The position numbers and the translations under genes are program-made. Shown one piece after another: positions 1 to 25,506 of a stretch of 32,421 bases of DNA (positions are counted from its first letter, which is position 1; each line of letters begins with the position of its first letter). Origin of the DNA: a virus; the UHGV virus genome UHGV-0019613; one strand, written 5' to 3'. The notes under the pieces were generated by a model. It did no database searches. It saw only the letters and a list, made by a program, of their open reading frames with translations, and was not told the origin of the DNA.

Positions 1-56
1 AAAAGGTGATAAAGCGAATACCTGGGCCGTCTACGGTTCCACAGGATTCAAAGGAG

Positions 57-77
57 TGAATGCGACCAATAACTGAC
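57..77. repeat. Candidate attL core: 13-bp ACCAATAACTGAC (65-77) is identical to 32345-32357, extending to about 19 bp with 2 mismatches
   Basis: Direct repeat seen at both ends of the prophage, just outside the int 3' end and just outside ogr; position is consistent with site-specific integration. Confidence 0.4.
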
Positions 78-167
78 TTGGTAGCCCCCGCCGTAGCGGT
101 ATTTTCTGTTGTATTACAATTAGTTAAATTACTCATATCGCTTCAATTGGCTCTAGTTAACTCTGGT

Positions 168-1163
168 TTATGGACGCATTATGGACATTCCTGACACCGG
201 GTTAAGAGTCACTGCATCTTGTAAGAAATCCGGTGCAAAGTGTGCGTAGGTCATAGTTTGCTGAATGTTAGAATGACCCAGGATGCGCTGCAATGTGATT
301 ATGTTACCTCCATTCATTATAAAATGTGTGGCAAATGTATGCCTCAAAACATGCACTGCCTGTCCGTCAGGTAAATCGGGTTTTACTTCCCTGAGAGCGT
401 TGCGCACTTTGTAGTAACTGGCATTAAAAAGCCTGCCTGAATTTTTGGTCTTGATCCGTTTAATCAGGTCCTGTGAAACGGGAATTGTCCTGCGCTTTCC
501 GTTTTTAGTTTTCATAAACGTAACCATCTGGTTAATGATGTGTTCAGCTTTTAAATTAGACACTTCACTCCAGCGTCCACCAGTAGAAAGGCAGACCAGA
601 GTCGCATTTAATTCATCACCATCGAGCATGGATAACAGCCGTGTAATCTCTTCACTGGACAAAAAAGCCATTTCTGTAACAGCTTCACGTAATCGCTTAA
701 CCTCACGGAACGGGTTGTGAGAATGGTATTCACCGGCGTCAATTAACTTGGTGAACATCCCGCTCATTATTGCCAGATGCCGATTTACGCTGGCTGGTTT
801 TAGACCATCGTTCATCATTACAACGCGATAATCAGTTATCGTTTTCTTTGTTAGCTGGTCAGCTCTGGACACTCCCATTTCTGCAAATTTGGCGATTATT
901 GTCGTCAAACGCCCCCGTTCAATATCTCCACGCTCATGTGATTTTCCGTGATATATCCACCATCTGCCTAACAACTCTGTAAGAGTTCGGCGGTCGGCTG
1001 GCTTCTCCAGCCACTCTTTGTTGTGGTAGTTAACCAGTACATGACGTTCGAATGCTTGAGCTTCACCTTTAGTTTTAAATTTCCGCCTGATACGTTTTCC
1101 ATCTGCACCCTGCGGTCTGACGTCCACTTCATAACGACCATCATCGAGCTTTTTAATAGACAT
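168..1163 (-). CDS. int: Tyrosine site-specific integrase (P2 Int family)
   Basis: 331-aa ORF with N-terminus MSIKKLDDGRYEVDVRP and C-terminal catalytic region HVLRHTFATHF...LGHSNIQQTMTYAHF (R-H-R-Y type); GGAGGG RBS upstream of ATG; first gene inside the att repeat as in P2. Confidence 0.9.
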   Translation of the reverse strand: MSIKKLDDGRYEVDVRPQGADGKRIRRKFKTKGEAQAFERHVLVNYHNKEWLEKPADRRTLTELLGRWWIYHGKSHERGDIERGRLTTIIAKFAEMGVSRADQLTKKTITDYRVVMMNDGLKPASVNRHLAIMSGMFTKLIDAGEYHSHNPFREVKRLREAVTEMAFLSSEEITRLLSMLDGDELNATLVCLSTGGRWSEVSNLKAEHIINQMVTFMKTKNGKRRTIPVSQDLIKRIKTKNSGRLFNASYYKVRNALREVKPDLPDGQAVHVLRHTFATHFIMNGGNIITLQRILGHSNIQQTMTYAHFAPDFLQDAVTLNPVSGMSIMRP

Positions 1164-1256
1164 AAAGCCCTCCGATGACGCTGTTTACTTCTACTACTTG
1201 AAAATTAATGCAATTTTCTTTCGTACATTTACTGCACACAAAAGCTGAATAAATCG

Positions 1257-1568
1257 TCAGCCAGTCTTTTGGTCTGAGTGGTGCAAGGTTGTTGAGTCTT
1301 GCCCAATGTGCGCGAGCGCCGGGGCTATTTGTCCGCCAGCGGGATCAGTTTCATCAAACATGAACCAGTCACGGTACTTGCGAAATCTTTCTGGCTTGAA
1401 AAATTTCATGCCTGCGTCAAAAGACATCTTTACTTTTCCCTGCTCATATCCAGCATAGGTGTTGTAGTTAATTCCAGTTAATTCAGCAACTTGCTTCCTT
1501 GTCATTCTTTCTGACTCCCGAATAAGTGCGAGTTTCTCTGCTTGAGATGTGATTTGTGTATTTGACAT
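1257..1568 (-). CDS. C: Immunity repressor, P2 C-like (HTH)
   Basis: About 103 aa from the internal ATG at 1568; HTH segment MTRKQVAELTGINYNTY; C-terminal GQIAPALAH motif resembles P2 C; sits between int and cox as in P2. Start codon choice is uncertain. Confidence 0.7.
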   Translation of the reverse strand: MSNTQITSQAEKLALIRESERMTRKQVAELTGINYNTYAGYEQGKVKMSFDAGMKFFKPERFRKYRDWFMFDETDPAGGQIAPALAHIGQDSTTLHHSDQKTG

Positions 1569-1672
1569 GAATTGTCGTATCTCGTAATTTATGTTGCATG
1601 CGACACGCCAGAACAACGCAGAGCGGCTTCAAATAGCTCTGGTTGAATGGCACCAAAGTTGAGGATATCAAA
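1569..1672. promoter_or_regulatory. Lysis-lysogeny switch region between C and cox (expected early and repressor promoters plus operators)
   Basis: About 100-bp gap between divergently oriented repressor and cox genes; function inferred from P2/186 organisation, individual promoter hexamers not confidently resolved. Confidence 0.4.
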
Positions 1673-2029
1673 ATGAGTATTGGATCAGAAATGAATAACG
1701 ATGTTGGAGAAAAAGTATCTGATCTCACAAAAAGTAAAAAATGTGACATCAAACTTGCAGCCGCACCGTCGGATTTGCTCTCGAAAGAGGGATTTGCTCT
1801 TTACATCGGTAAGACGCCTCGTGCTGTTGCTGAAATGGCGAAAGCAGGAAAGTTACCAGCCTTTTATATGACGGACCCATTAAAGCCGGGCGGTCATGCT
1901 GAGTTATGGATTAATCGCCGTGAGTGGGACAAGTACGCAGCCCAACTAGTTGATGAAGCTCCGACAGAATGGCATGACTGGAAAAATCGCATTAGTTACA
2001 GCAAATCAAGACATGGCCGTGCGGCTTAA
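1673..2029 (+). CDS. cox: Cox-like excisionase/transcriptional regulator
   Basis: ATG at 1673 preceded by GAGGA; contains LPAFYMTDP...ELWINRREW, resembling the P2 Cox core; longer than P2 Cox. Confidence 0.6.
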   Translation: MSIGSEMNNDVGEKVSDLTKSKKCDIKLAAAPSDLLSKEGFALYIGKTPRAVAEMAKAGKLPAFYMTDPLKPGGHAELWINRREWDKYAAQLVDEAPTEWHDWKNRISYSKSRHGRAA

Positions 2030-2039
2030 GGTGGAAAGG

Positions 2040-2210: not shown

Positions 2211-2707
2211 CAGTGATGACGCTCAATCTCGTTGAAAAACAACCAGCAACTATGCGCCGGATAATTGGTAAGCATCTTGCCGTCCCTCGCTGGCAGGAGA
2301 CATGTGATTATTATAATCAGATGATGGAGCGCGAACGGCTAACGGTTTGCTTCCATGCGCAGTTAAAACAGCGTCATGCAACGATGCGTTTTGAAGAAAT
2401 GAACGACGTCGAACGTGAACGGCTGGTTTGTGCAATTGATGAATTGCGTGGGGCATTCTCAAAACGCCGTCAGGTCGGTGCAAGTGAGTATGCATATATT
2501 AGCTTTTTAACTGTCAGTCAGCGCCGTACTTTATTTATGCACGCACGACTGACAGAAAAAGAATTTAACCAGCCATACTGGCGAATTAATGAAGAGTCAT
2601 GTTACTGGCGTGATGCTTTATTCCGTGCATTACGTGAATTATTCAGTCTGTTTGAATATGCACCGACAATTCTGACGTCGGTAAAACCAGAGCAATATCT
2701 GCATTAA
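2207..2707 (+). CDS. B: Replication protein B-like (P2 gene B position, helicase-loader role in P2)
   Basis: 166 aa from ATG 2207 with GGAGGG RBS 7 nt upstream; same length and position as P2 B; no sequence-level confirmation possible here. Confidence 0.5.
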   Translation: MTVMTLNLVEKQPATMRRIIGKHLAVPRWQETCDYYNQMMERERLTVCFHAQLKQRHATMRFEEMNDVERERLVCAIDELRGAFSKRRQVGASEYAYISFLTVSQRRTLFMHARLTEKEFNQPYWRINEESCYWRDALFRALRELFSLFEYAPTILTSVKPEQYLH

Positions 2708-2770
2708 GTAATTAACCAAAGTTTTTAACGCACTTAATTGTGCGGGGCTTCTTTTTGCCTGGAGAAAGTC

Positions 2771-2983
2771 ATGCATATAGTTTCTGAAAATCAGTGCGGT
2801 AAATACGCATTAATGCTGCAACAGGCCAGAACCGAAGCACAGGCCGATGCAGCAACGCGCATTTCGTCTCATCTTGATGCCATGATTCGCCACATCACAA
2901 AGGCGGAGTTATCCCGCGTGGAGATAGTCGAGTTGCTCAGTCAGGAGTCTGCCAAATTCCATAATCTAGGACTCAATAAATAA
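2771..2983 (+). CDS. Hypothetical small early protein
   Basis: 70-aa ORF with GGAGAAA RBS before ATG 2771; in the early operon between B and A. Confidence 0.5.
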
Positions 2984-2997
2984 CAGGAAAGTTGGAG

Positions 2998-3243
2998 ATG
3001 ACAAATACAAAATGGTTCAGGAAACACTTAACAGATTATCAACTTTCATTACTTAAAAAATTAGATGACAAGACTCCACTACATCCTTCAAGCGATGTCT
3101 TCCGCTCCTGTCCTAGTCGTGTGGAAAAAGCATTTATAGCAATGGGGAAATGGGGGCTTGTGACCAAATCAAGAGAAGGTTTCTGTATTACCGATAATGG
3201 CCGGGAAATGATTGATTCTGCGGAGAGGGCATATAGCGAATGA
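2998..3243 (+). CDS. Hypothetical small early protein (AT-rich)
   Basis: 81 aa from ATG 2998 with AGGAAAG RBS; by-eye AT-rich relative to neighbours. Confidence 0.5.
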   Translation: MTNTKWFRKHLTDYQLSLLKKLDDKTPLHPSSDVFRSCPSRVEKAFIAMGKWGLVTKSREGFCITDNGREMIDSAERAYSE

Positions 3244-3530
3244 AAAATATATTGCTTAATAACTGGCTGAAGATTTCAGTCATGAAAAATGGTGATTTGT
3301 CGCTAGCTGATATTAAACGCGATAAAAACACTGGGGATATGGTGGAATCAACTATAGCCATTTATGCGGATAAATTAAATCTCCTGTCTGATGTGGTTAA
3401 TTTACTTGTTAAACGCGCTGTATTTCATAAGCAAATTTCATCCGTGGATGAACTGACAAAATTAACGACAGAAATCGCCAGCTATTGCGCTGATGAATTT
3501 AAGAAACTGAACGACAAAAGGAGCTGGTAA
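3240..3530 (+). CDS. Hypothetical small early protein (AT-rich)
   Basis: 96-aa ORF; ATG overlaps previous stop (ATGA); AT-rich codon usage unlike the P2 backbone. Confidence 0.5.
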   Translation: MKNILLNNWLKISVMKNGDLSLADIKRDKNTGDMVESTIAIYADKLNLLSDVVNLLVKRAVFHKQISSVDELTKLTTEIASYCADEFKKLNDKRSW

Positions 3531-3754
3531 TGCCGGACAACGTGGATTTTATTCAGGAACAACAGGCTGAATTACTGGAGCGCCAGATTAACGCGGCAAG
3601 GGTAAAACATTGCGGTGCTTCTGCGCTGGTTTGCGAAGAGTGTGATGCGCCAATACCTGCTGCCCGTCGTGCGGCTTATCCATCAGCCACGCGTTGTGTT
3701 TCCTGTCAGTTAGTCTTTGAAGCAAAAAACAAGCATTACCGGAGAACGGCATGA
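3530..3754 (+). CDS. TraR/DksA-family C4 zinc-finger protein
   Basis: 74 aa; CxxC...CxxC pattern (CEECD ... CVSC); start overlaps previous stop (TAATG); such proteins are typical of P2-like early operons. Confidence 0.7.
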   Translation: MPDNVDFIQEQQAELLERQINAARVKHCGASALVCEECDAPIPAARRAAYPSATRCVSCQLVFEAKNKHYRRTA

Positions 3755-4026
3755 GTATTCGTATTGAAATTGGCGAACGTTATGTCGTTACCAGTGACAG
3801 CTTTCAGTTTATTCTCCACGAGAAAAAGAGAGCTGAAAGCGGTAAAAACGCCGGTCAGGAATGGCTGGCGGTGGTTGGTTATTACCCGAAATTAAGCCAG
3901 CTCGTTTCCGGCCTGATGCATCACGATATTCTGACCGGAAGCGCAAAGTCTTTTGCTGATTTAAACGCGCAGGTTGAGCAACTCAGCAGGCGTTGTTCAG
4001 AGGCATTTGGCTCATATGGCCGTTAA
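3751..4026 (+). CDS. Hypothetical early protein
   Basis: 91-aa ORF with GGAGA RBS; ATGA overlap with preceding gene. Confidence 0.5.
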   Translation: MSIRIEIGERYVVTSDSFQFILHEKKRAESGKNAGQEWLAVVGYYPKLSQLVSGLMHHDILTGSAKSFADLNAQVEQLSRRCSEAFGSYGR

Positions 4027-6286
4027 AGCCTCCGGGCGTTTTGTCCCTCCGTCAGCATTTGCCGCAGGCACCGGTAAGGCGTTTACCGGTGCTTATGCAT
4101 GGAATGCGCCACGCGAGGCTGTCGGGCGCGAAAGACCCCTTACACGTGACGAGATGCGTCAGGTGCAAGGTGTTTTATCCACGATTAATCGCCTGCCTTA
4201 CTTTTTGCGCTCGCTGTTTACTTCACGCTATGACTACATCCGGCGCAATAAAAGCCCGTTACACGGGTTTTATTTCCTCACATCCACTTTTCAGCGTCGT
4301 TTATGGCCCCGCATTGAGCGTGTGAATCAGCGCCATGAAATGAACACCGACGCGTCGTTGCTGTTTCTGGCAGAGCGTGACCACTATGCGCGCCTGTCGG
4401 GAATGAATGACAAGGAGCTGAAAAAGTTTGCTGCCCGTATCTCATCGCAGCTTTTCATGATGTATGAGGAACTCTGCGATGCCTGGGTTGATGCACATGG
4501 CGAAAAAGAATCGCTGTTTACGGATGAGGCGCAGGCTCACCTCTATGGTCATGTTGCTGGCGCTGCACGTGCTTTCAATATTTCCCCGCTCTACTGGAAA
4601 AAATACCGTAAAGGGCAGATGACCACGAGGCAGGCATATTCTGCCATTGCCCGTCTGTTTAACGATGAGTGGTGGACTCATCAGCTTAAAGGCCAGCGTA
4701 TGCGCTGGCATGAGGCGTTACTGATTGCTGTCGGGGAGGTCAATAAAGACCGTTCTCCTTATGCCAGTAAACATGCCATTCGTGATGTGCGTGCGCGCCG
4801 CCAGGCAAATCTGGAATTTCTTAAATCGTGTGACCTCGAAAACAGGGAAACCGGCGAACGCATCGACCTTATCAGTAAGGTGATGGGCAGTATTTCTAAT
4901 CCTGAAATTCGCCGGATGGAGCTGATGAACACCATTGCCGGTATTGAGCGTTACGCCGCCGCTGAGGGTGATGTGGGGATGTTTATCACGCTGACCGCGC
5001 CGTCAAAGTATCACCCTACACGTCAGGTTGGAAAAGGTGAAAGTAAAACCGTCCAGCTTAATCACAGCTGGAACGATGAGGCATTTAATCCAAAGGATGC
5101 GCAGCGTTATCTCTGCCGTATCTGGAGCCTGATGCGCACGGCATTCAAGGATAATGATTTACAGGTCTACGGTTTGCGAGTCGTCGAGCCACACCACGAC
5201 GGAACGCCGCACTGGCATATGATGCTTTTTTGTAATCCACGCCAGCGTAACCAGATTATCGACATCATGCGTCGCTATGCGCTCAAAGAGGATGGCGACG
5301 AAAGAGGAGCCGCGCGAAACCGTTTTCAGGCAAAACATCTTAATCGGGGCGGTGCTGCGGGGTATATCGCGAAATACATCTCAAAAAATATCGACGGCTA
5401 TGCACTGGATGGGCAGCTCGATAACGATACCGGCAGACCGCTGAAAGATACTGCCGCGGCTGTTACCGCATGGGCGTCAACGTGGCGCATTCCGCAATTT
5501 AAAACGGTTGGCCTGCCGACAATGGGGGCTTACCGTGAACTACGCAAATTGCCTCGCGGCGTCAGCATTGCTGATGAGTTTGACGAGCGCGTCGAGGCTG
5601 CACGCGCCGCCGCAGACAGTGGTGATTTTGCGCTGTATATCAGCGCGCAGGGTGGGGCAAATGTCCCGCGCGATTGTCAGACTGTCAGGGTCGCCCGTAG
5701 TCCGTCGGATGAAGTTAACGAGTACGAGGAAGAAGTCGAGAGAGTGGTCGGCATTTACGCGCCGCATCTCGGCGCGCGTCATATTCATATCACCAGAACG
5801 ACGGACTGGCGCATTGTTCCGAAAGTGCCGGTCGTTGAGCCTTTGACTTTAAAAAGCGGCATCGCCGCGCCTCGGAGTCCTGTCAATAACTGTGGAAAGC
5901 TCACCGGTAGTGATGTTTCGTTACCGGCTCCCACACCTTCTGAGCACGCCGCCGCAGTGCTTAATCTGGTTGATGACGGTGTTATCGAATGGAATGACCA
6001 GGAGGTCGTGAGGGCGCTCAGGGGCGCATTAAAACACGACCTGAGAACACCAAACCGTCAGCAAAGAAGCGGAAGCCCGTTAAAACCGCATGAAATAGCG
6101 CCATCGGCCAGACTGACCCGGTCGGAACGAATGCAAATTACCCGTATCCGCGTTGACCTTGCTCAGAACGGTATCAGGCCGCAGCGATGGGAGCTTGAGG
6201 CGCTGGCGCGTGGGGCAACTGTAAATTACGACGGGAGAAGCTTCAGTTATCCTGTTATATGTGATTGGAGAGCGTATGAATTATGA
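4016..6286 (+). CDS. A: Rolling-circle replication initiation endonuclease (P2 gpA family)
   Basis: About 756 aa; HUH-type motif TPHWHMMLF and downstream tyrosine-rich region AGYIAKYISKNIDGY; size and position match P2 A. Start could be the TTG at 3974 or the ATG at 4016. Confidence 0.85.
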   Translation: MAVKASGRFVPPSAFAAGTGKAFTGAYAWNAPREAVGRERPLTRDEMRQVQGVLSTINRLPYFLRSLFTSRYDYIRRNKSPLHGFYFLTSTFQRRLWPRIERVNQRHEMNTDASLLFLAERDHYARLSGMNDKELKKFAARISSQLFMMYEELCDAWVDAHGEKESLFTDEAQAHLYGHVAGAARAFNISPLYWKKYRKGQMTTRQAYSAIARLFNDEWWTHQLKGQRMRWHEALLIAVGEVNKDRSPYASKHAIRDVRARRQANLEFLKSCDLENRETGERIDLISKVMGSISNPEIRRMELMNTIAGIERYAAAEGDVGMFITLTAPSKYHPTRQVGKGESKTVQLNHSWNDEAFNPKDAQRYLCRIWSLMRTAFKDNDLQVYGLRVVEPHHDGTPHWHMMLFCNPRQRNQIIDIMRRYALKEDGDERGAARNRFQAKHLNRGGAAGYIAKYISKNIDGYALDGQLDNDTGRPLKDTAAAVTAWASTWRIPQFKTVGLPTMGAYRELRKLPRGVSIADEFDERVEAARAAADSGDFALYISAQGGANVPRDCQTVRVARSPSDEVNEYEEEVERVVGIYAPHLGARHIHITRTTDWRIVPKVPVVEPLTLKSGIAAPRSPVNNCGKLTGSDVSLPAPTPSEHAAAVLNLVDDGVIEWNDQEVVRALRGALKHDLRTPNRQQRSGSPLKPHEIAPSARLTRSERMQITRIRVDLAQNGIRPQRWELEALARGATVNYDGRSFSYPVICDWRAYEL

Positions 6287-6333
6287 GATTGTGATAAAAA
6301 GTAAATAATTAATATAATGCAATTGCTTGACTG

Positions 6334-6372
6334 TTTTAAAAGGGACAACGTAGTTGTGAACTATATTGTCCC
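6334..6372 (-). terminator. Rho-independent terminator candidate for the endonuclease gene (possibly bidirectional)
   Basis: Inverted repeat GGGACAA...TTGTCCC (6342-6372) followed on the minus strand by TTTTAAAA; lies between convergent A and endonuclease genes. Confidence 0.45.
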
Positions 6373-6379
6373 GGGAGTA

Positions 6380-7435
6380 TTAATTTTTAAATATGGATTG
6401 TATGTATTCTATAGTGCTATCTTTAGCTCTGATGTCTTTTAAAGTGTTATTTATGAAATCTATTATTCTGTCATTACTTAATAGTGGCGATAACGCATAA
6501 CATGTTGTTGTGAATGTCATGACGTCACTAAAGCTTAGTGAAACACCTTTTGTCGCAGCGTTCTCAATCGCAAGAGACTCATCAATATCTAAGTTTGTTG
6601 CTCTTGGCCCTTTAAGGAAGATAACTTTTGAAATCCCGGATGCAGATGCTTTTGAAACGGCGTGATTAACATCTTGATAATTAAATGGTTTGTCTTTCAC
6701 TTCTATAGAAAGGAAAACTATATCATCATGATATACATCTATGTCCAGTATCTCTTTTGAGGAGCTACCGGCCTGATTGACGGGATGTGCTTTTATTATC
6801 CATCCTCTTTGTTCACCTAATAAATGTAACGAAATTGCGGCAGCAATCGCGCATGTTTCTCCATCACAAGGATGAGATATAATATTATAAATAATCTTAT
6901 GGAAATCAAAATTAATTGAGTTCGGCGTTATAACTCTATTGGTTCGCTGTAGGGTAAAATATAATGCAATAACAAGCATTTCATAAGCTAAGGTTTGGGT
7001 TGTTGCTGCATGTAATATATCAATTGAAAGTTGTTGTAAAACCTTATCATTTCCTCTGCGCACAGGGTTATCAGAGGAGTGGAGCATGTAACGAGCTGGT
7101 TTATTTAGAAATGGCTCATTTGATGCGCCTAACTTACCCTCTAAAAATGGGCCTTCTACTTTGCCTACTATTACCGAATGACATAAACTCCTTGCATCAT
7201 AGGCTCCGTCTACGGGGGCATTAGCTTGTAAAGCCAGAGGGTTAACTCTAGGGTCTGTTGCTTTTGCAAGTAAACCAGTAATAAGTATATATCTGTATGT
7301 AAGGTGGGTGCCTAAAATTACATTTTGAATGGAGACCCATTGATTATTTGTTTTGTAATCAGTTAATTTTTTTGCATCGTTGATTGCATTTATAATTACA
7401 TTATAGGCTTGCTCATGATTTACTAATACTTTCAT
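6380..7435 (-). CDS. Candidate Type II restriction endonuclease (PD-(D/E)xK-like)
   Basis: 351-aa ORF in AT-rich cargo; D-x7-E-x-K-like motif in YHDDIVFLSIEVKDK; co-oriented with and overlapped by an upstream small HTH gene and divergent from a C5-methyltransferase; AAGGA RBS before ATG 7435. Confidence 0.55.
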   Translation of the reverse strand: MKVLVNHEQAYNVIINAINDAKKLTDYKTNNQWVSIQNVILGTHLTYRYILITGLLAKATDPRVNPLALQANAPVDGAYDARSLCHSVIVGKVEGPFLEGKLGASNEPFLNKPARYMLHSSDNPVRRGNDKVLQQLSIDILHAATTQTLAYEMLVIALYFTLQRTNRVITPNSINFDFHKIIYNIISHPCDGETCAIAAAISLHLLGEQRGWIIKAHPVNQAGSSSKEILDIDVYHDDIVFLSIEVKDKPFNYQDVNHAVSKASASGISKVIFLKGPRATNLDIDESLAIENAATKGVSLSFSDVMTFTTTCYALSPLLSNDRIIDFINNTLKDIRAKDSTIEYIQSIFKN

Positions 7436-7682
7436 AGGTGTCCTTTAGTAAGATATCCATTGGTAGACCTAATCGGCTTGCAACCACCTCTAATAATTCA
7501 AATAGTTCTAAAGCATCTAATCGCCTTTCAAAGCTTTCGATTTTAGATATATCTGATTGTGATAATCCTAGAAAAATGGCCAATTCTGACTGCGAAAGAG
7601 AAGCTTCTTTGCGTAGTTTGGTGAGAAGCTGGACTAGGCACCTGTATCTATGATCATGTATAGTTGGTTGTCGTTTTGCCAT
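7413..7682 (-). CDS. Small HTH controller (C-protein-like, XRE family) of the R-M module
   Basis: About 90 aa from ATG 7682 (alternative ATG at 7727); HTH segment LSQSELAIFLGLSQSDISKIE; its 3' end overlaps the endonuclease start by 23 nt, the arrangement typical of C-regulated R-M operons. Confidence 0.55.
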   Translation of the reverse strand: MAKRQPTIHDHRYRCLVQLLTKLRKEASLSQSELAIFLGLSQSDISKIESFERRLDALELFELLEVVASRLGLPMDILLKDTYESISKS

Positions 7683-7702
7683 GTGGTTTAGAAGGTGATT
7701 GA

Positions 7703-8857
7703 TTGTGTGTCGATCCTTACCTATCATTGGTTTTATTCCAAAATCGAATAATTGGTGCTAAAGAAGTGAACAAAATTTCAGCGGTGAGCTTATTTACTGG
7801 GGCAGGAGGGATGGATGTCGGTTTCTCTAATGCCGGGTTCCGAACAGTTTGGGCCAATGATATAGATAAGGATGCATGTGATACATTTAAGCTTAATCAT
7901 GAATCACCTGTTTTTTGTGGTGATATTGATGAGATGCTAAGTGAATTGTCTGGGCTGAAAAATATAGGTTGTGTTTTTGGTGGGCCTCCATGCCAAGGAT
8001 TTTCTGTGGCAGGGAAAATGGACGCTCATGATCCACGTAGTAAGCTGGTTATGTCATTCATGCGGGCGGTGGATATAATTCAACCAGAATGCTTTGTTAT
8101 GGAGAATGTTAAGGCTTTAGCACAGTTGTCCAAATTTGAACCAGTTAGGTGTGAACTGTTTAAGATGGCTGAAAAGTCAGGCTATCGTTCAGCCTTGCTG
8201 GTGCTGAATTCTAAAGATTTTGGCGTTCCTCAGAATAGGGAACGTATGTTTTTTATAGGGTTTCGTTCCGAAAATGATGTGAAACGAGTTGAGGCGGCGA
8301 TAAAAAAATACCAATATCTTTCGCCAACAGTTGGTGAGATTATTCGGCCTTTAGGGCGAGCGGGTAATCCAAATAATTCAAGAGTCTGTAATGCAAGGAT
8401 TACAAATGCTGCTAAGCCAGTATTACGGAAGTCACCTTACGCGGGAATGATGTTTAACGGGCAGGGAAGACCAATTAACCCGAATGGGTATGCTTCAACT
8501 ATAGCTGCTTCTATGGGGGGGAATAGGACACCAATTATTGATGAAGAACACCTTTATGATGGCTCAACAAGTTATGTTGAGACTTATCATAATCATCTAA
8601 TGAATGGTGGTGAGCCAAAAGATATGCACGATGTACCTAGTCGTTTACGTCGACTAACGATAGATGAGGCTCTTTTGATTCAAACATTCCCGAGTAATTA
8701 TGTCTTTGTGGGGAAAAATTCGTCAATTTGGCGTCAGATAGGGAATGCTGTGCCTTGTAAATTGGCGCAGGCTGTTGCTGCAGGGGTTTTGGATGTCCTT
8801 ACTGGTAAAACTATTAATGTTCAAAAGAGTCAAACAGAGTTGAGTTTGAATTCGTAA
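7703..8857 (+). CDS. DNA (cytosine-5)-methyltransferase
   Basis: Canonical m5C MTase motifs: FTGAGGMDVGF (motif I), GGPPCQGFS (motif IV), ENV (motif VI), QNRERMFFIG (motif VIII), GNAVP (motif X); start is a TTG at 7703 with AAGGTGA RBS, exact start uncertain. Confidence 0.85.
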   Translation: MCVDPYLSLVLFQNRIIGAKEVNKISAVSLFTGAGGMDVGFSNAGFRTVWANDIDKDACDTFKLNHESPVFCGDIDEMLSELSGLKNIGCVFGGPPCQGFSVAGKMDAHDPRSKLVMSFMRAVDIIQPECFVMENVKALAQLSKFEPVRCELFKMAEKSGYRSALLVLNSKDFGVPQNRERMFFIGFRSENDVKRVEAAIKKYQYLSPTVGEIIRPLGRAGNPNNSRVCNARITNAAKPVLRKSPYAGMMFNGQGRPINPNGYASTIAASMGGNRTPIIDEEHLYDGSTSYVETYHNHLMNGGEPKDMHDVPSRLRRLTIDEALLIQTFPSNYVFVGKNSSIWRQIGNAVPCKLAQAVAAGVLDVLTGKTINVQKSQTELSLNS

Positions 8858-9013
8858 AACGGATCACATTTTCAAACCGATGGATGCAGAATTTAACATT
8901 GCTGCATGAGTTTGCATCTTGAAATCATAAGCTGTACTGCTTGGCTTGACCAGAATTGATGTGGGTAAGAAGTGGTTATGCACCCGCATTAAAACCGCCC
9001 CATTAAGCGGGCG

Positions 9014-9032
9014 GGCGAGGCGGGGAAAGCAC
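9014..9032. other. P2-type cos cohesive-end sequence (GGCGAGGCGGGGAAAGCAC)
   Basis: 19-nt string matches my recollection of the P2 cohesive end, and sits between the A-side cargo and Q exactly where cos lies in a P2 prophage. Confidence 0.55.
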
Positions 9033-18382: not shown

Positions 18383-18448
18383 TTGTGCCATTCCTGACAC
18401 CTCATCGTCACATTGCCGCCGGTATGACCCGGCGGCATCCTTCCCGTT

Positions 18449-20874: not shown

Positions 20875-22992
20875 ATGAACACAAAATTCAGAACCGTTAT
20901 CACCACTGCCGGTGCAGCAAAGCTGGCAGCGGCAACCGCACCGGGAGGGCGGAAGGTCAACATTACCACGATGGCCGTCGGGGATGGCGGTGGTAAATTG
21001 CCTGTCCCGGATGCCGGACAGACCGGGCTTATCCACGAAGTCTGGCGACATACGCTGAACAAAATCAGCCAGGACAAACGAAACAGTAATTATATTATCG
21101 CAGAGCTGGTTATTCCGCCGGAGGTGGGCGGTTTCTGGATGCGTGAGCTTGGCCTGTACGATGATGCGGGAACATTAATTGCCGTGGCGAACATGGCCGA
21201 AAGTTATAAGCCAGCTCTTGCCGAAGGCTCAGGGCGTTCGCAGACCTGTCGCATGGTCATCATCGTCAGCAGTGTGGCCTCAGTGGAGCTGACCATTGAC
21301 ACCACAACAGTGATGGCGACGCAGGATTACGTTGATGACAAAATTGCAGAGCATGAACAGTCACGACGTCACCCTGACGCCTCGCTGACCGCAAAAGGTT
21401 TTACTCAGTTAAGCAGTGCGACCAACAGCACGTCTGAAACACTCGCCGCAACACCAAAAGCGGTAAAAGCAGCATATGACCTTGCTAACGGGAAATACAC
21501 TGCACAGGATGCCACCACCGCACGAAAAGGCCTTGTCCAGCTCAGTAGCGCCACCAACAGCGATTCTGAAACGCTTGCGGCAACGCCAAAGGCGGTAAAG
21601 GCCGCGTATGACCTTGCTAACGGGAAATACACTGCACAGGATGCCACTATAGCGCGAAAAGGTCTTGTCCAGCTCAGTAGCGCCACCAACAGTGATTCTG
21701 AAATGCTGGCCGCGACATCAAAAGCGGTGAAGTCTGCCAATGACAATGCTGAAAAACGTCTTCAGAAAGATCAGAACGGTGCGGATATTCCTGATAAAGA
21801 ACGCTTCTTGAGTAACATTAATGTTTACAGCAAAGGTGAAGTGGATAAGAAAAAGGGAATGCGAAAGTATTCGTTTGCAGCCCCTGCAAATGTCGTTGCC
21901 GGGAAGTGGTATCCCGTTATCTTTCGCCGTGCTGCCAGCCTTTCAGGAGAAATGGCTTCCCGCGTCGTTATTTCCACTGGTTGTTATAACAGCGATTATG
22001 TAATGAATAACTGCGAGTTTAATGGCATGGTTATGCCCGGAGGCTGGACTGATCGTGGTTCTTATGCGGCAGGTTACTTCTGGACGTATCAGACTAATGA
22101 GCGTTCAATCCATTCCATTGTTACAAGCCTGAAAGATGATGATGTATGTAGTGTTTTTTATGTTGAAGCCAGAGCTTTCCCTGTACAAATTCTTGCAGAG
22201 GAAGGGCTAACGGTTATTGTTCCGACAGAGGATTATGTCGTCGGTCAAACGACATATAAGTGGGGGGCAACTAATCCCGCTACAGAAAGCACGAACGCAC
22301 AGGCTATTCTGGATTTTAAAAATGGACGTGGTTATTACTGTTCACATCCATTTATTTCCAGCCTTTCAGGAAATGCTGCAACAGCAACGAAGTTAGCGAA
22401 CGCAAGAAATATTAATGGTGTCAGATTTGATGGCTCTGCCGATATAAATATTAATACACTGGTATCCAGAAACCGTGTTACTGCATTAGGTGGGAGCGTA
22501 AAGGGGACACCAGGTATTCAGATGTATGAGGCATACAACAATGGCTACCCAACAGCCTATGGTAATGTGCTTCATCTCACTGGTGTAACCGCAGTAGGAG
22601 AGGGTGAGTTACTTATTGGCTGGAGTGGAACCAGCGGTGCTCATGCTCCGGCATATATTCGCTCCCGACGAGATACCACAGATGCTAACTGGTCTGGATG
22701 GGCGCAACTATATACAACTGCTCATAAACCCTCAGCGGGAGATGTTGGTGCATACACCAAAGCTGAGTCAGATTCACGTTATGTGAGAGACATGCGGCTG
22801 GGCGGTGCATCTACATATAAACCAGCAAATAATGGTACTACATGGACGCATCAGGCTCCGTCAGGTTGCGTATATACCGGCATTATTGTTCAGGATACCG
22901 GCTCAAACTCTGCCGATAACATTGGTGGCGTATATTACAGACCGGTGCAGAAATACATTAACGGGACATGGTATAACGTGGCGCAGGTATAA
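20875..22992 (+). CDS. H: Tail fibre protein
   Basis: 705 aa; conserved P2 H-like N-terminus (FRTVITTAGAAKLAAA) and C-terminal YINGTWYNVAQV; internal tandem repeats. Confidence 0.85.
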   Translation: MNTKFRTVITTAGAAKLAAATAPGGRKVNITTMAVGDGGGKLPVPDAGQTGLIHEVWRHTLNKISQDKRNSNYIIAELVIPPEVGGFWMRELGLYDDAGTLIAVANMAESYKPALAEGSGRSQTCRMVIIVSSVASVELTIDTTTVMATQDYVDDKIAEHEQSRRHPDASLTAKGFTQLSSATNSTSETLAATPKAVKAAYDLANGKYTAQDATTARKGLVQLSSATNSDSETLAATPKAVKAAYDLANGKYTAQDATIARKGLVQLSSATNSDSEMLAATSKAVKSANDNAEKRLQKDQNGADIPDKERFLSNINVYSKGEVDKKKGMRKYSFAAPANVVAGKWYPVIFRRAASLSGEMASRVVISTGCYNSDYVMNNCEFNGMVMPGGWTDRGSYAAGYFWTYQTNERSIHSIVTSLKDDDVCSVFYVEARAFPVQILAEEGLTVIVPTEDYVVGQTTYKWGATNPATESTNAQAILDFKNGRGYYCSHPFISSLSGNAATATKLANARNINGVRFDGSADININTLVSRNRVTALGGSVKGTPGIQMYEAYNNGYPTAYGNVLHLTGVTAVGEGELLIGWSGTSGAHAPAYIRSRRDTTDANWSGWAQLYTTAHKPSAGDVGAYTKAESDSRYVRDMRLGGASTYKPANNGTTWTHQAPSGCVYTGIIVQDTGSNSADNIGGVYYRPVQKYINGTWYNVAQV
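21397..21750 (+). repeat. Tandem 132-bp (44-aa) repeat inside tail fibre gene H, two near-identical copies plus a diverged third
   Basis: GFTQLSSATNS(T/D)SETLAATPKAVKAAYDLANGKYTAQDAT(T/I)ARK repeated with period 132 nt (for example GACCTTGCTAACGGG at 21478 and 21610). Confidence 0.7.
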
Positions 22993-23608: not shown

Positions 23609-23817
23609 ATCCCACACTTCTGCTTCTGTGGCCAAAATCCGTATGCCACTACACTGCTGGCTTTTTAAGCGGCATTAATCATATGGCTTCCTATGAATAC
23701 GAAGGGTAAAATGGATAGGTATACGCTATAGAATTATGTATATGCTACATATACCAACAACGAAAGCAGGTTGCAAAGCAGCCTGTATAATCATCACTTA
23801 AGTTCATGGAATAAAAT

Positions 23818-25119
23818 ATGCATACTGGCTTTAAGGGAACTTATGACGCACTTTTGAGGCTTGAGAAGGCTATAGAAGGTCTGACCATCCAAGATGGGTT
23901 GATGACGAATACTCTTGGAGTTGAGGTTCCGGCAATAACATCAGATGACCTAATTGACCAAATAATTTGCATTATTAACAAGCTGAAAGCATATGGTGAT
24001 ATTGAACTAACTGAAAAAGAAATTGTCGCTTATTCATCTCTCCCTGAAAAAATTGACACACTCATTAAAGTTCACGTCCCAGAGTTCTCAGGCGTTAACT
24101 CCGCACGAGCTATATCTTCATATATGCTAACACTGGCATATGTTGACCATTTCTTGGATGAATCGTTTACATGGAAGCGGTTGGATAATGCTAATTTACT
24201 TCCTAGAAATTTAAGCAGAAAAATTAAAAGCATGGAGGCGAGAATTAACAAGATTGATCCTGAGATGGATGCTCTTGAGAGTAAAGTTAAAACGATTAAT
24301 GATGCTCATGTAGCTGCAGAAAATATACCTATAGACTTAAATGAATTAAAGGAATACAACAAAGAAGCATCTGATTTAAAGGAGAAGATATCTAAAACTC
24401 ATTTCAGTTTAGAGTCCCAAGAAGAAGCTGCAAAAAAAATTATTGATGAGTTGCAAGAAAAAAATATAGAGGCTGCCCGGTATCTGGCTCTTTGCGAAGA
24501 GGCTATTAGGGCTTCAACATCGAAAGGCTTAGCAGGAGCATTTGAAATAAAAGCAGATAAGCTTAACCGAAGTATCCAACTATGGGTTGCCGGTTTGGCA
24601 GTTGCTTTGGGGCTTGGTGGTTTAGTCGGATATGAAAGATTGAAAGTTCTTTCTGGGGTTTTGAATAACCCAAATCCCAGTGCGGTAGTAATACTCACTC
24701 AATTACTATTATCTGTTTTTAGCATAGGCGCCCCTCTTTGGTTTGCTTGGATGTCTACAAAACAAATTAATCAACGTTTCAAACTCGCAGAGGATTATGC
24801 TTATAAAGCTTCTGTGGCTAAAGCGTATGAGGGATACAAAAATGAGGCATGCAAGGTATCAGATGGAGAGTTCGAAAAACGCTTATTTGATTCTGCGCTA
24901 AGTCGACTTGAAGAGGCTCCATTGCGTTTTGTGAAAGATGAAGATCATACTACTCCTTGGACAGAAATGCTTAATTCTAAGTCGTTTCAAAAATTCTTAG
25001 ATGCCTCCATTGATAATGTAAATTATGTTAAAGGGATTATAAGTAAGAAAGGCCAATCAGCAGCTAAAGCAAGCAATGATGAGGTTAATCACATTGAAAA
25101 ACTAAAGAATGAAGCTTGA
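23818..25119 (+). CDS. Uncharacterised cargo protein: coiled-coil N-terminal region, two central transmembrane helices, soluble C-terminal domain; candidate defence/abortive-infection effector
   Basis: 433-aa uninterrupted ORF in a by-eye AT-rich island at the P2 Z/fun locus; hydrophobic stretches about residues 254-272 (IQLWVAGLAVALGLGGLVGY) and 288-312 (AVVILTQLLLSVFSIGAPLWFAWM); TATAAT 27 nt upstream; tandem terminators downstream; no Walker A or nuclease motif recognised. Confidence 0.75.
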   Translation: MHTGFKGTYDALLRLEKAIEGLTIQDGLMTNTLGVEVPAITSDDLIDQIICIINKLKAYGDIELTEKEIVAYSSLPEKIDTLIKVHVPEFSGVNSARAISSYMLTLAYVDHFLDESFTWKRLDNANLLPRNLSRKIKSMEARINKIDPEMDALESKVKTINDAHVAAENIPIDLNELKEYNKEASDLKEKISKTHFSLESQEEAAKKIIDELQEKNIEAARYLALCEEAIRASTSKGLAGAFEIKADKLNRSIQLWVAGLAVALGLGGLVGYERLKVLSGVLNNPNPSAVVILTQLLLSVFSIGAPLWFAWMSTKQINQRFKLAEDYAYKASVAKAYEGYKNEACKVSDGEFEKRLFDSALSRLEEAPLRFVKDEDHTTPWTEMLNSKSFQKFLDASIDNVNYVKGIISKKGQSAAKASNDEVNHIEKLKNEA

Positions 25120-25130
25120 ATTATAATACT

Positions 25131-25153
25131 GCCTCCGCAAGTGCGAGGCTTTT
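25131..25153 (+). terminator. Rho-independent terminator immediately after the cargo gene
   Basis: GCCTCCGCA-AG-TGCGAGGC hairpin followed by TTTT. Confidence 0.55.
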
Positions 25154-25160
25154 ACATTAA

Positions 25161-25189
25161 CTGCCCTGCAGTAAATCTAGGGCAGTTTT
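25161..25189 (+). terminator. Second tandem terminator-like hairpin
   Basis: CTGCCCT...AGGGCAG (7-bp stem, 11-nt loop) followed by TTTT. Confidence 0.5.
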
Positions 25190-25506
25190 ACGTGCTAGGG
25201 GCTGAGTTGGCTAACCGGCTCTTTCAGCAGTCGGTCTGCCGCTATTGAGCTGGGGCTCAACGTGTGTGAGAACGTCAGATTCAATACGTAGGTATGGCCT
25301 CACTCCTTATTTGAGCACTCGCAATACAGAGAGTTAAAGTGATCGCCTTTCGGTACTGATCTGCGAATGACTTTGGGGGATTTGCACTCAGGGGAGAGTA
25401 ACTTCGTGACAACTTCCGCTCTTAGCTAAAAGCAGACTGTCAGATTTGATAGCGTTTCGGCAATGTAAATAGTCAGTCGGAAAATGAGTGTGTACAAGTC
25501 AGGACA

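Follow-up and report, generated by a model that had tools for sequence, protein, structure and literature searches.

The closest described relative of the locus studied here is EcoT38I, a restriction-modification (R-M) system of Escherichia coli TH38 that is placed on defective P2 prophages by the title of its description (Kita, Kawakami and Tanaka 2003, J Bacteriol 185:2296). Its endonuclease (R), controller (C) and methyltransferase (M) genes are arranged head-to-head, C overlaps R, and the module has P2 genes A and Q on either side. The gpA-gpQ locus next to cos is a hotspot for anti-phage defence genes (Rousset et al. 2022, PMC9122126), in which P2 carries the abortive-infection genes old and tin. 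EcoO109I, a further C-controlled Type II R-M system, is carried by P4-like satellites in their cos-proximal hotspot, beside a P2-type cos (Kita et al. 1999, cited in PMC9122126). In systems of the PvuII/EcoRV type, a small helix-turn-helix (HTH) controller gene is located upstream of and co-transcribed with R, M is divergent, and the two sides share a palindromic operator. Here we analysed the virus genome UHGV-0019613 (32,421 nt, hereafter the window), and in particular a three-gene island at 6287-8860 that lies between gpA and the portal gene gpQ of a P2-like prophage adjoining yegR.

The island has the R, C and M sequences of EcoT38I, in the same head-to-head order and between the same P2 genes. 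It differs from the TH38 system in its carrier, as the TH38 prophages are defective according to the paper's title whereas the essential P2 genes in the window are all full-length. With the tin/old locus of P2 it shares the gpA-gpQ site by cos and exchangeable AT-rich defence cargo, but the cargo is a Type II R-M system rather than abortive-infection genes. It resembles EcoO109I in being a C-controlled Type II system beside a P2-type cos, while EcoO109I has other enzymes and a satellite P4 as its carrier. The PvuII/EcoRV-type gene order is also present; in contrast, C.EcoT38I appears distant in sequence from the C.PvuII/AhdI/Esp1396I group, and a single candidate ATTC-N7-GAAT palindrome is found instead of the 35-bp double box that is described for PvuII-like sites. 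Collectively, we estimate at roughly 93% the probability that the island is EcoT38I, a Type II R-M system that a P2-like prophage carries as cargo in its cos-proximal variable locus and that is controlled as modelled below. The EcoT38I system and its location on P2 prophages were already published in 2003; the finding is correct and is not new.

The island beside cos and its three proteins

The main features of the island are as follows.

6256-8985, no strand: AT-rich cargo island that stands between gene A and cos/gene Q in place of P2 orf91-tin-old
6380-7435, minus strand: ecoT38IR, encoding R.EcoT38I, a Type II restriction endonuclease of 351 aa (SacI family, PD-(D/E)xK domain)
7413-7682, minus strand: ecoT38IC, encoding the controller protein, 89 aa with an XRE-type HTH (PDB 2EF8, Pfam HTH_3)
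7766-8857, plus strand: ecoT38IM, encoding a C5-cytosine methyltransferase of 363 aa from a GTG start
9014-9032, plus strand: cohesive-end (cos) sequence of the P2 type, GGCGAGGCGGGGAAAGCAC, the same as the annotated cosL (1-19) and cosR (33575-33593) of NC_001895

The span 6287-8860 comprises three open reading frames (ORFs), two on the minus strand (the 351-aa ORF and the small HTH gene) and one on the plus strand for the C5-cytosine methyltransferase. Its GC content is 32-43%, compared to 50-59% in the flanks. In blastn comparison with P2 (NC_001895), homology stopped at window 6255 (P2 30273), within the 3' end of gene A, and restarted at 8986 (P2 33547), 28 nt before cos. These breaks indicate that the island replaces orf91-tin-old, with 2.73 kb in the window standing in for 3.27 kb of P2, and tblastn found no match to P2 orf91, tin or old in the window. 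A previous sequence-only reading of this DNA had placed a three-gene AT-rich island where P2 has tin and old, and had taken the 19-mer at 9014-9032 for cos. The ORFs, the GC content and the P2 alignment bear out the former, and identity to cosL and cosR the latter. The features lie at 6287-8860 as that reading had them, although the loss of P2 homology gives the island a slightly wider extent, 6256-8985. With cargo between gpA and gpQ, beside cos and in a P2-like genome, the locus belongs to the P2 cos-proximal defence hotspot.

To compare the module with its relatives, nine related loci were aligned with the window; their R proteins are 52-79% identical to the one studied here. The layout, with M on one side facing C and then R on the other, was found in all nine, including two (L010 and L011) in which the gene finder had missed a C gene that is visible in the alignment. 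In L007, L009, L010 and L011 the module lies between the portal gene and gpA of P2-like prophages in other genera. Two loci lie away from the gpA-gpQ site. In Pseudescherichia (L005, 2573-6500) the module is ~1.5 kb from a yegS-like gene and has no nearby phage genes, and in Yersinia (L006, 2575-6574) it directly adjoins ogr and gpD in a P2-like prophage, at the end opposite to that site.

The 351-aa ORF was identical at 351 of 351 residues to PDB 7E8R_A (also 7EDB), deposited as "EcoT38I restriction endonuclease". It matched Pfam RE_SacI (PF09566) with 258 bits (cut-off 19.3; profile positions 4-276 of 276) and a full-length PADLOC Type II restriction endonuclease model with 834 bits; no NCBIfam model was found for it. 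AUA at codon 15 of the EcoT38I endonuclease (PMC6456624, Table 3) agrees with the window. The full identity to 7E8R together with the RE_SacI match allows the endonuclease to be named. The ORF is therefore a genuine restriction endonuclease, as had been proposed, and its family, which the sequence-only reading had been unable to name, is RE_SacI. Across 31 aligned SacI-family proteins (38-79% identical to the query), D231, D233, E245, K247, D248 and K249 were invariant in the C-terminal part. D231 and D233 sit in 'LDIDVY', and within HDDIVFLSIEVK only E245-V-K247 is invariant. The conserved acids, the E-x-K and the PD-(D/E)xK fold place the enzyme in the PD-(D/E)xK superfamily. The PD-(D/E)xK-like motif of the sequence-only reading thus points to the right type of catalytic domain, but the "DD" it cited (D237, D238) is not conserved.

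The controller was identical to PDB 2EF8 at 84 of 84 residues and matched Pfam HTH_3. REBASE includes C.EcoT38I among its C proteins, and a motif upstream of it has been predicted (PMC2632904); the main text of that paper gives no operator sequences. The 3' end of the gene (the stop ends at 7413) overlaps the start of R at 7435 by 23 nt; the controller gene lies within the R-M gap and overlaps R, as in EcoT38I. A small HTH gene directly upstream of and co-oriented with R is a controller-type layout, and it is kept in the nine related loci. The ATG at 7682 is likewise kept as the C start in all nine. A 104-aa product from the ATG at 7727 was rejected, as this ATG is lost in Serratia and the 7727-7682 spacer contains a 13-nt indel. 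The earlier description of an XRE-type HTH gene of roughly 90 aa overlapping the endonuclease start therefore fits in length (89 aa) and overlap (23 nt); taken as longest ORFs, both C and M would be over-extended at the start. The order it gave, controller then endonuclease opposite the methyltransferase, is the order observed, with C then R facing a divergent M.

The 363-aa M protein from the GTG at 7766 was an exact match to UniProt Q83VT0 (taxon Peduovirus P2). It matched Pfam DNA_methylase (PF00145) with 225.7 bits (1.3e-66; profile positions 2-320 of 324) and TIGR00675 dcm with 200 bits. FTGAGG, PPCQGFS, ENV, QNRER and GNAVP are present in the translation for motifs I, IV, VI, VIII and X. 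The Pfam match and these motifs substantiate the claim of a divergent C5-cytosine methyltransferase with all canonical motifs. The start at 7766 aligns with an ATG in five related loci, and GGG at codons 12 and 15 of the EcoT38I methyltransferase (PMC6456624, Table 3) agrees with the window when counted from 7766. Two other starts were discarded: a 384-aa protein from the TTG at 7703 was ruled out by the comparison of loci, and the 348-aa form in some annotations would start with 'MDVGF' and no longer include motif I. The starts at 7766 (M) and 7435 (R) leave an intergenic distance of exactly 330 nt (7436-7765). The abstract of the original EcoT38I description reportedly gives the same R-M distance.

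R, C and M are thus identical to the deposited EcoT38I proteins, in line with the Type II R-M module that had been proposed; that the whole arrangement is a published case had gone unrecognised in the sequence-only reading. The 351-aa protein does not belong to a non-nuclease family, M appears not to be an orphan and the 19-mer is cos, which are the three points on which that reading had held itself open to refutation.

Candidate operator, predicted promoters and an invariant block

The following elements were predicted or recognised by comparison of the loci.

7733-7751, no strand: candidate C-box, a palindromic operator TTATTC-GATTTTG-GAATAA (perfect 6-7-6) between the divergent C/R and M
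7713-7741, minus strand: predicted C/R promoter, with -35 TTGGAA (7741-7736, falling in the palindrome's right arm) and, after a 17-nt spacer, a weak -10 AAGGAT (7718-7713)
7699-7727, plus strand: predicted M promoter, with -35 TTGATT, a 17-nt spacer and -10 TATCAT (9/12 consensus matches)
7633-7664, no strand: invariant block within ecoT38IC (codons 7-17), whose edges coincide with a plus-strand TAGGCA-N18-TATAGT promoter-like pair

Among the eight enterobacterial modules, 43% of columns were invariant overall, and the palindrome core TATTCGATTTTGGAATA (7734-7750) was, at 17 nt, the longest invariant run in the 2.5-kb module. The palindrome was retained in all aligned loci, with the arms ATGC-N7-GCAT instead of ATTC-N7-GAAT in Pseudoalteromonas (L008), the most distant of them. 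A symmetric double change of this kind is expected of a site bound by a dimer. The search for a C-box palindrome upstream of the controller gene, which the sequence-only reading had suggested, thus yielded a conserved symmetric candidate. The operator of EcoO109I is said to be CTAAG-N5-CTTAG, and a palindrome scan of 7436-7800 revealed nothing of that kind.

The elements of the C/R promoter were recognisable in all nine loci, as TTGGAA or TTGGCA, a 17-18 nt spacer and AAnnAT, in which the A, A and T of the -10 are invariant. For the M promoter, L004-L007 have a -35 (TTGCAT, TTGCTT or TTGTAA) and a 17-nt spacer, with the -10 at the same position. The two predicted promoters interleave on opposite strands, and M transcription would start at ~7734, on the edge of the palindrome.

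These predictions suggest a simple model of control. A C dimer would bind ATTC-N7-GAAT at 7733-7751. The operator overlaps the -35 of the weak C/R promoter, where bound C would aid RNA polymerase, and it would lie at about +1 to +17 of the rightward M promoter, where bound C would block or damp transcription. Bound C would in this way switch on C and R, which share one leftward transcript, and damp M. After lysogenisation of a new cell, M would come first and R only once C had accumulated, a delay by which the still unmethylated chromosome would escape cutting. M.EcoT38I would methylate a cytosine in the recognition sequence and so protect host and prophage DNA, while R.EcoT38I would cut unmethylated sites in incoming DNA. 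For the lysogen, the gain would be the ability to restrict foreign DNA; cells that lose the prophage would be subject to post-segregational killing.

The second conserved element lies inside the C gene. In eight diverged enterobacterial loci, 31 of its 32 columns are invariant, synonymous sites included (29/30 in the best 30-nt window); apart from the palindrome and this block, all invariant runs in the module are of 8 nt or less. The block contains the rare codons ATA, AGA, AGG and CTA and a ATGATCAT palindrome with a central GATC, and it is not retained in Pseudoalteromonas. An RNA hairpin (minimum free energy -15 kcal/mol, z -2.17) is a weak explanation of the block, as its pairing partner in the leader is not conserved in the relatives. 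The block may be an antisense or second M promoter (TAGGCA-N18-TATAGT, plus strand) that would fire through the C start and collide with C/R transcription, or it may be a second protein-binding site. It is conceivable, though on balance doubtful, that the block is an undescribed cis-regulatory element of this R-M family and, in addition, that the prophage, which unlike those of TH38 is apparently intact, could as a live phage still package EcoT38I and pass it on.

An inverted repeat is present downstream of R.

6342-6372, minus strand: GGGACAA-N17-TTGTCCC followed by TTTTAAAA on the minus strand, between the convergent genes A and R, read from the sequence

It is a possible terminator of the C-R transcript. 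A terminator scan passed over it on account of its loop, which is longer than 8 nt.

Recognition site and alternative readings

The sequence-only reading had assigned the endonuclease no specificity. As the enzyme is R.EcoT38I, it would cut G(A/G)GC(T/C)^C (GRGCYC), the specificity given for EcoT38I by REBASE and, reportedly, by the abstract of the 2003 description; further mentions of EcoT38I in the literature were reference-list entries. GRGCYC is absent from P2 and occurs once in the window (25253, in non-P2 cargo), compared to ~26-28 sites in dinucleotide shuffles. In 50 kb of the host chromosome we counted 0.14 sites per kb, a ~7-fold depletion. The scarcity of GRGCYC is thus for the most part a general trait of E. 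coli, the excess specific to the phage is modest, and the zero in P2 is only mildly notable. Avoidance as a special adaptation of P2 was accordingly rejected as a strong finding: the host baseline predicts ~4.7 sites, for which a count of zero has a Poisson P of ~0.01.

Several points weigh against the reading of the island as EcoT38I under the proposed control. The PADLOC Control_protein models matched the controller weakly (2e-4 and 4e-3), and its PDB matches were 2EF8 and generic XRE proteins, with no classical C-protein structure among them. The enterobacterial C leader shows no clear Shine-Dalgarno sequence in the alignment. Both promoters and the operator are predictions from the DNA sequence, and the invariant 32-nt block has no place in the simple control model. 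In the 2003 abstract C is reported to activate R and repress M, which the proposed model fits.

One alternative is that the module mainly serves addiction, keeping the prophage in its host through post-segregational killing, and is not in the first place a defence against other phages. R-M systems carried by mobile elements are commonly regarded as selfish stabilisers, and the papers that cite EcoT38I come from that literature. The P2 backbone has no GRGCYC sites, so the targets of the enzyme would be the host chromosome and foreign DNA, not the phage. However, an addiction role leaves room for defence, the same locus carries experimentally validated anti-phage systems in other P2-like phages (PMC9122126), and any Type II R-M system restricts unmethylated incoming DNA that contains its sites. 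We therefore regard a mainly addictive role as possible but rather unlikely.

Two further alternatives concern the endonuclease. In one related genome (H19) the methyltransferase is annotated as two pieces, as might be expected of a silent or decayed cassette with an orphan methyltransferase beside an inactive endonuclease. In the window, by contrast, none of the three ORFs is broken and their products match the deposited EcoT38I proteins exactly, the catalytic residues are preserved, and 20 complete genomes carry this DNA at an identity of 99.6% or more, which makes decay very improbable. An isoschizomer of SacI, recognising only GAGCTC and not the degenerate GRGCYC, would be in keeping with RE_SacI as the sole family assignment found and with the name 'SacI family' given by PGAP. 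A family name does not settle specificity, however, and the protein is identical at every residue to the deposited EcoT38I, whose documented specificity is GRGCY^C; this alternative is, if anything, even less credible than decay.

Distribution and prophage backbone

The cassette was found at a DNA identity of at least 99.6% in 20 of 5426 complete E. coli genomes (0.37%), always on the chromosome, and R proteins identical to this one, or nearly so, are also on record for Salmonella enterica. Among deposited phage genomes, megablast found no close homologue, and the best tblastn match had 35% identity, in Evtepia phages. The enzymes, the controller and their place in P2 prophages have been known since 2003, structures are available for two of the three proteins, and the locus has been a textbook hotspot since 2022. 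The PGAP labels of the three genes go no further than 'SacI family', 'helix-turn-helix domain-containing protein' and 'DNA cytosine methyltransferase'; in the 20 E. coli genomes the cassette could be annotated as EcoT38I, and the annotated start codons of C and M could be corrected (7682 and 7766). The comparative footprint, with its palindrome, interleaved promoters and 32-nt block, provides testable detail on a less-studied class of controller.

In four unrelated complete E. coli assemblies (H1, H10, H16 and H20) the module lies at identical record coordinates, 2272-4845, so that each of these records begins with P2 gene A at base 1. The likely cause is a start-fixing tool that took the replication gene of the phage for the origin gene of the chromosome.

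Each of the essential P2 genes in the window has its full length, at 95-100% amino-acid identity. Relative to P2, the window lacks orf30, fun(Z), orf91, tin and old or has other DNA in their place; the P2 annotation marks these genes as nonessential, with the exception of orf91, for which it has no such remark. Window 1-2030 encodes a non-P2 immunity type, with an integrase, a repressor and a cox protein 53%, 48% and 35% identical to those of P2. At the DNA level this segment is 98-99.6% identical to other peduoviruses, such as pro147 and S164, and the peduovirus match begins at window 59-65, which is the left end of the prophage.

Other differences from P2 are spread over the rest of the window. 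Between orf80 and orf81, P2 homology is broken by an AT-rich segment (~38% GC) with an 83-aa ORF at 2992-3243, for which no Pfam or PADLOC family was found. P2 orf30 is replaced by ~64 bp (18385-18448). The second variable locus of P2, which holds fun(Z) there (window 23609-25408), instead contains a 433-aa ORF (23818-25119, plus strand) with a coiled-coil-like middle and two hydrophobic stretches. No Pfam family matched this ORF above threshold and its PADLOC matches were marginal; it may be an uncharacterised defence or exclusion gene. Lastly, at 21601-22937 the tail-fibre protein H departs from its P2 counterpart over the C-terminal two-thirds, as does the assembly protein G (75% identity), which suggests a different receptor specificity.

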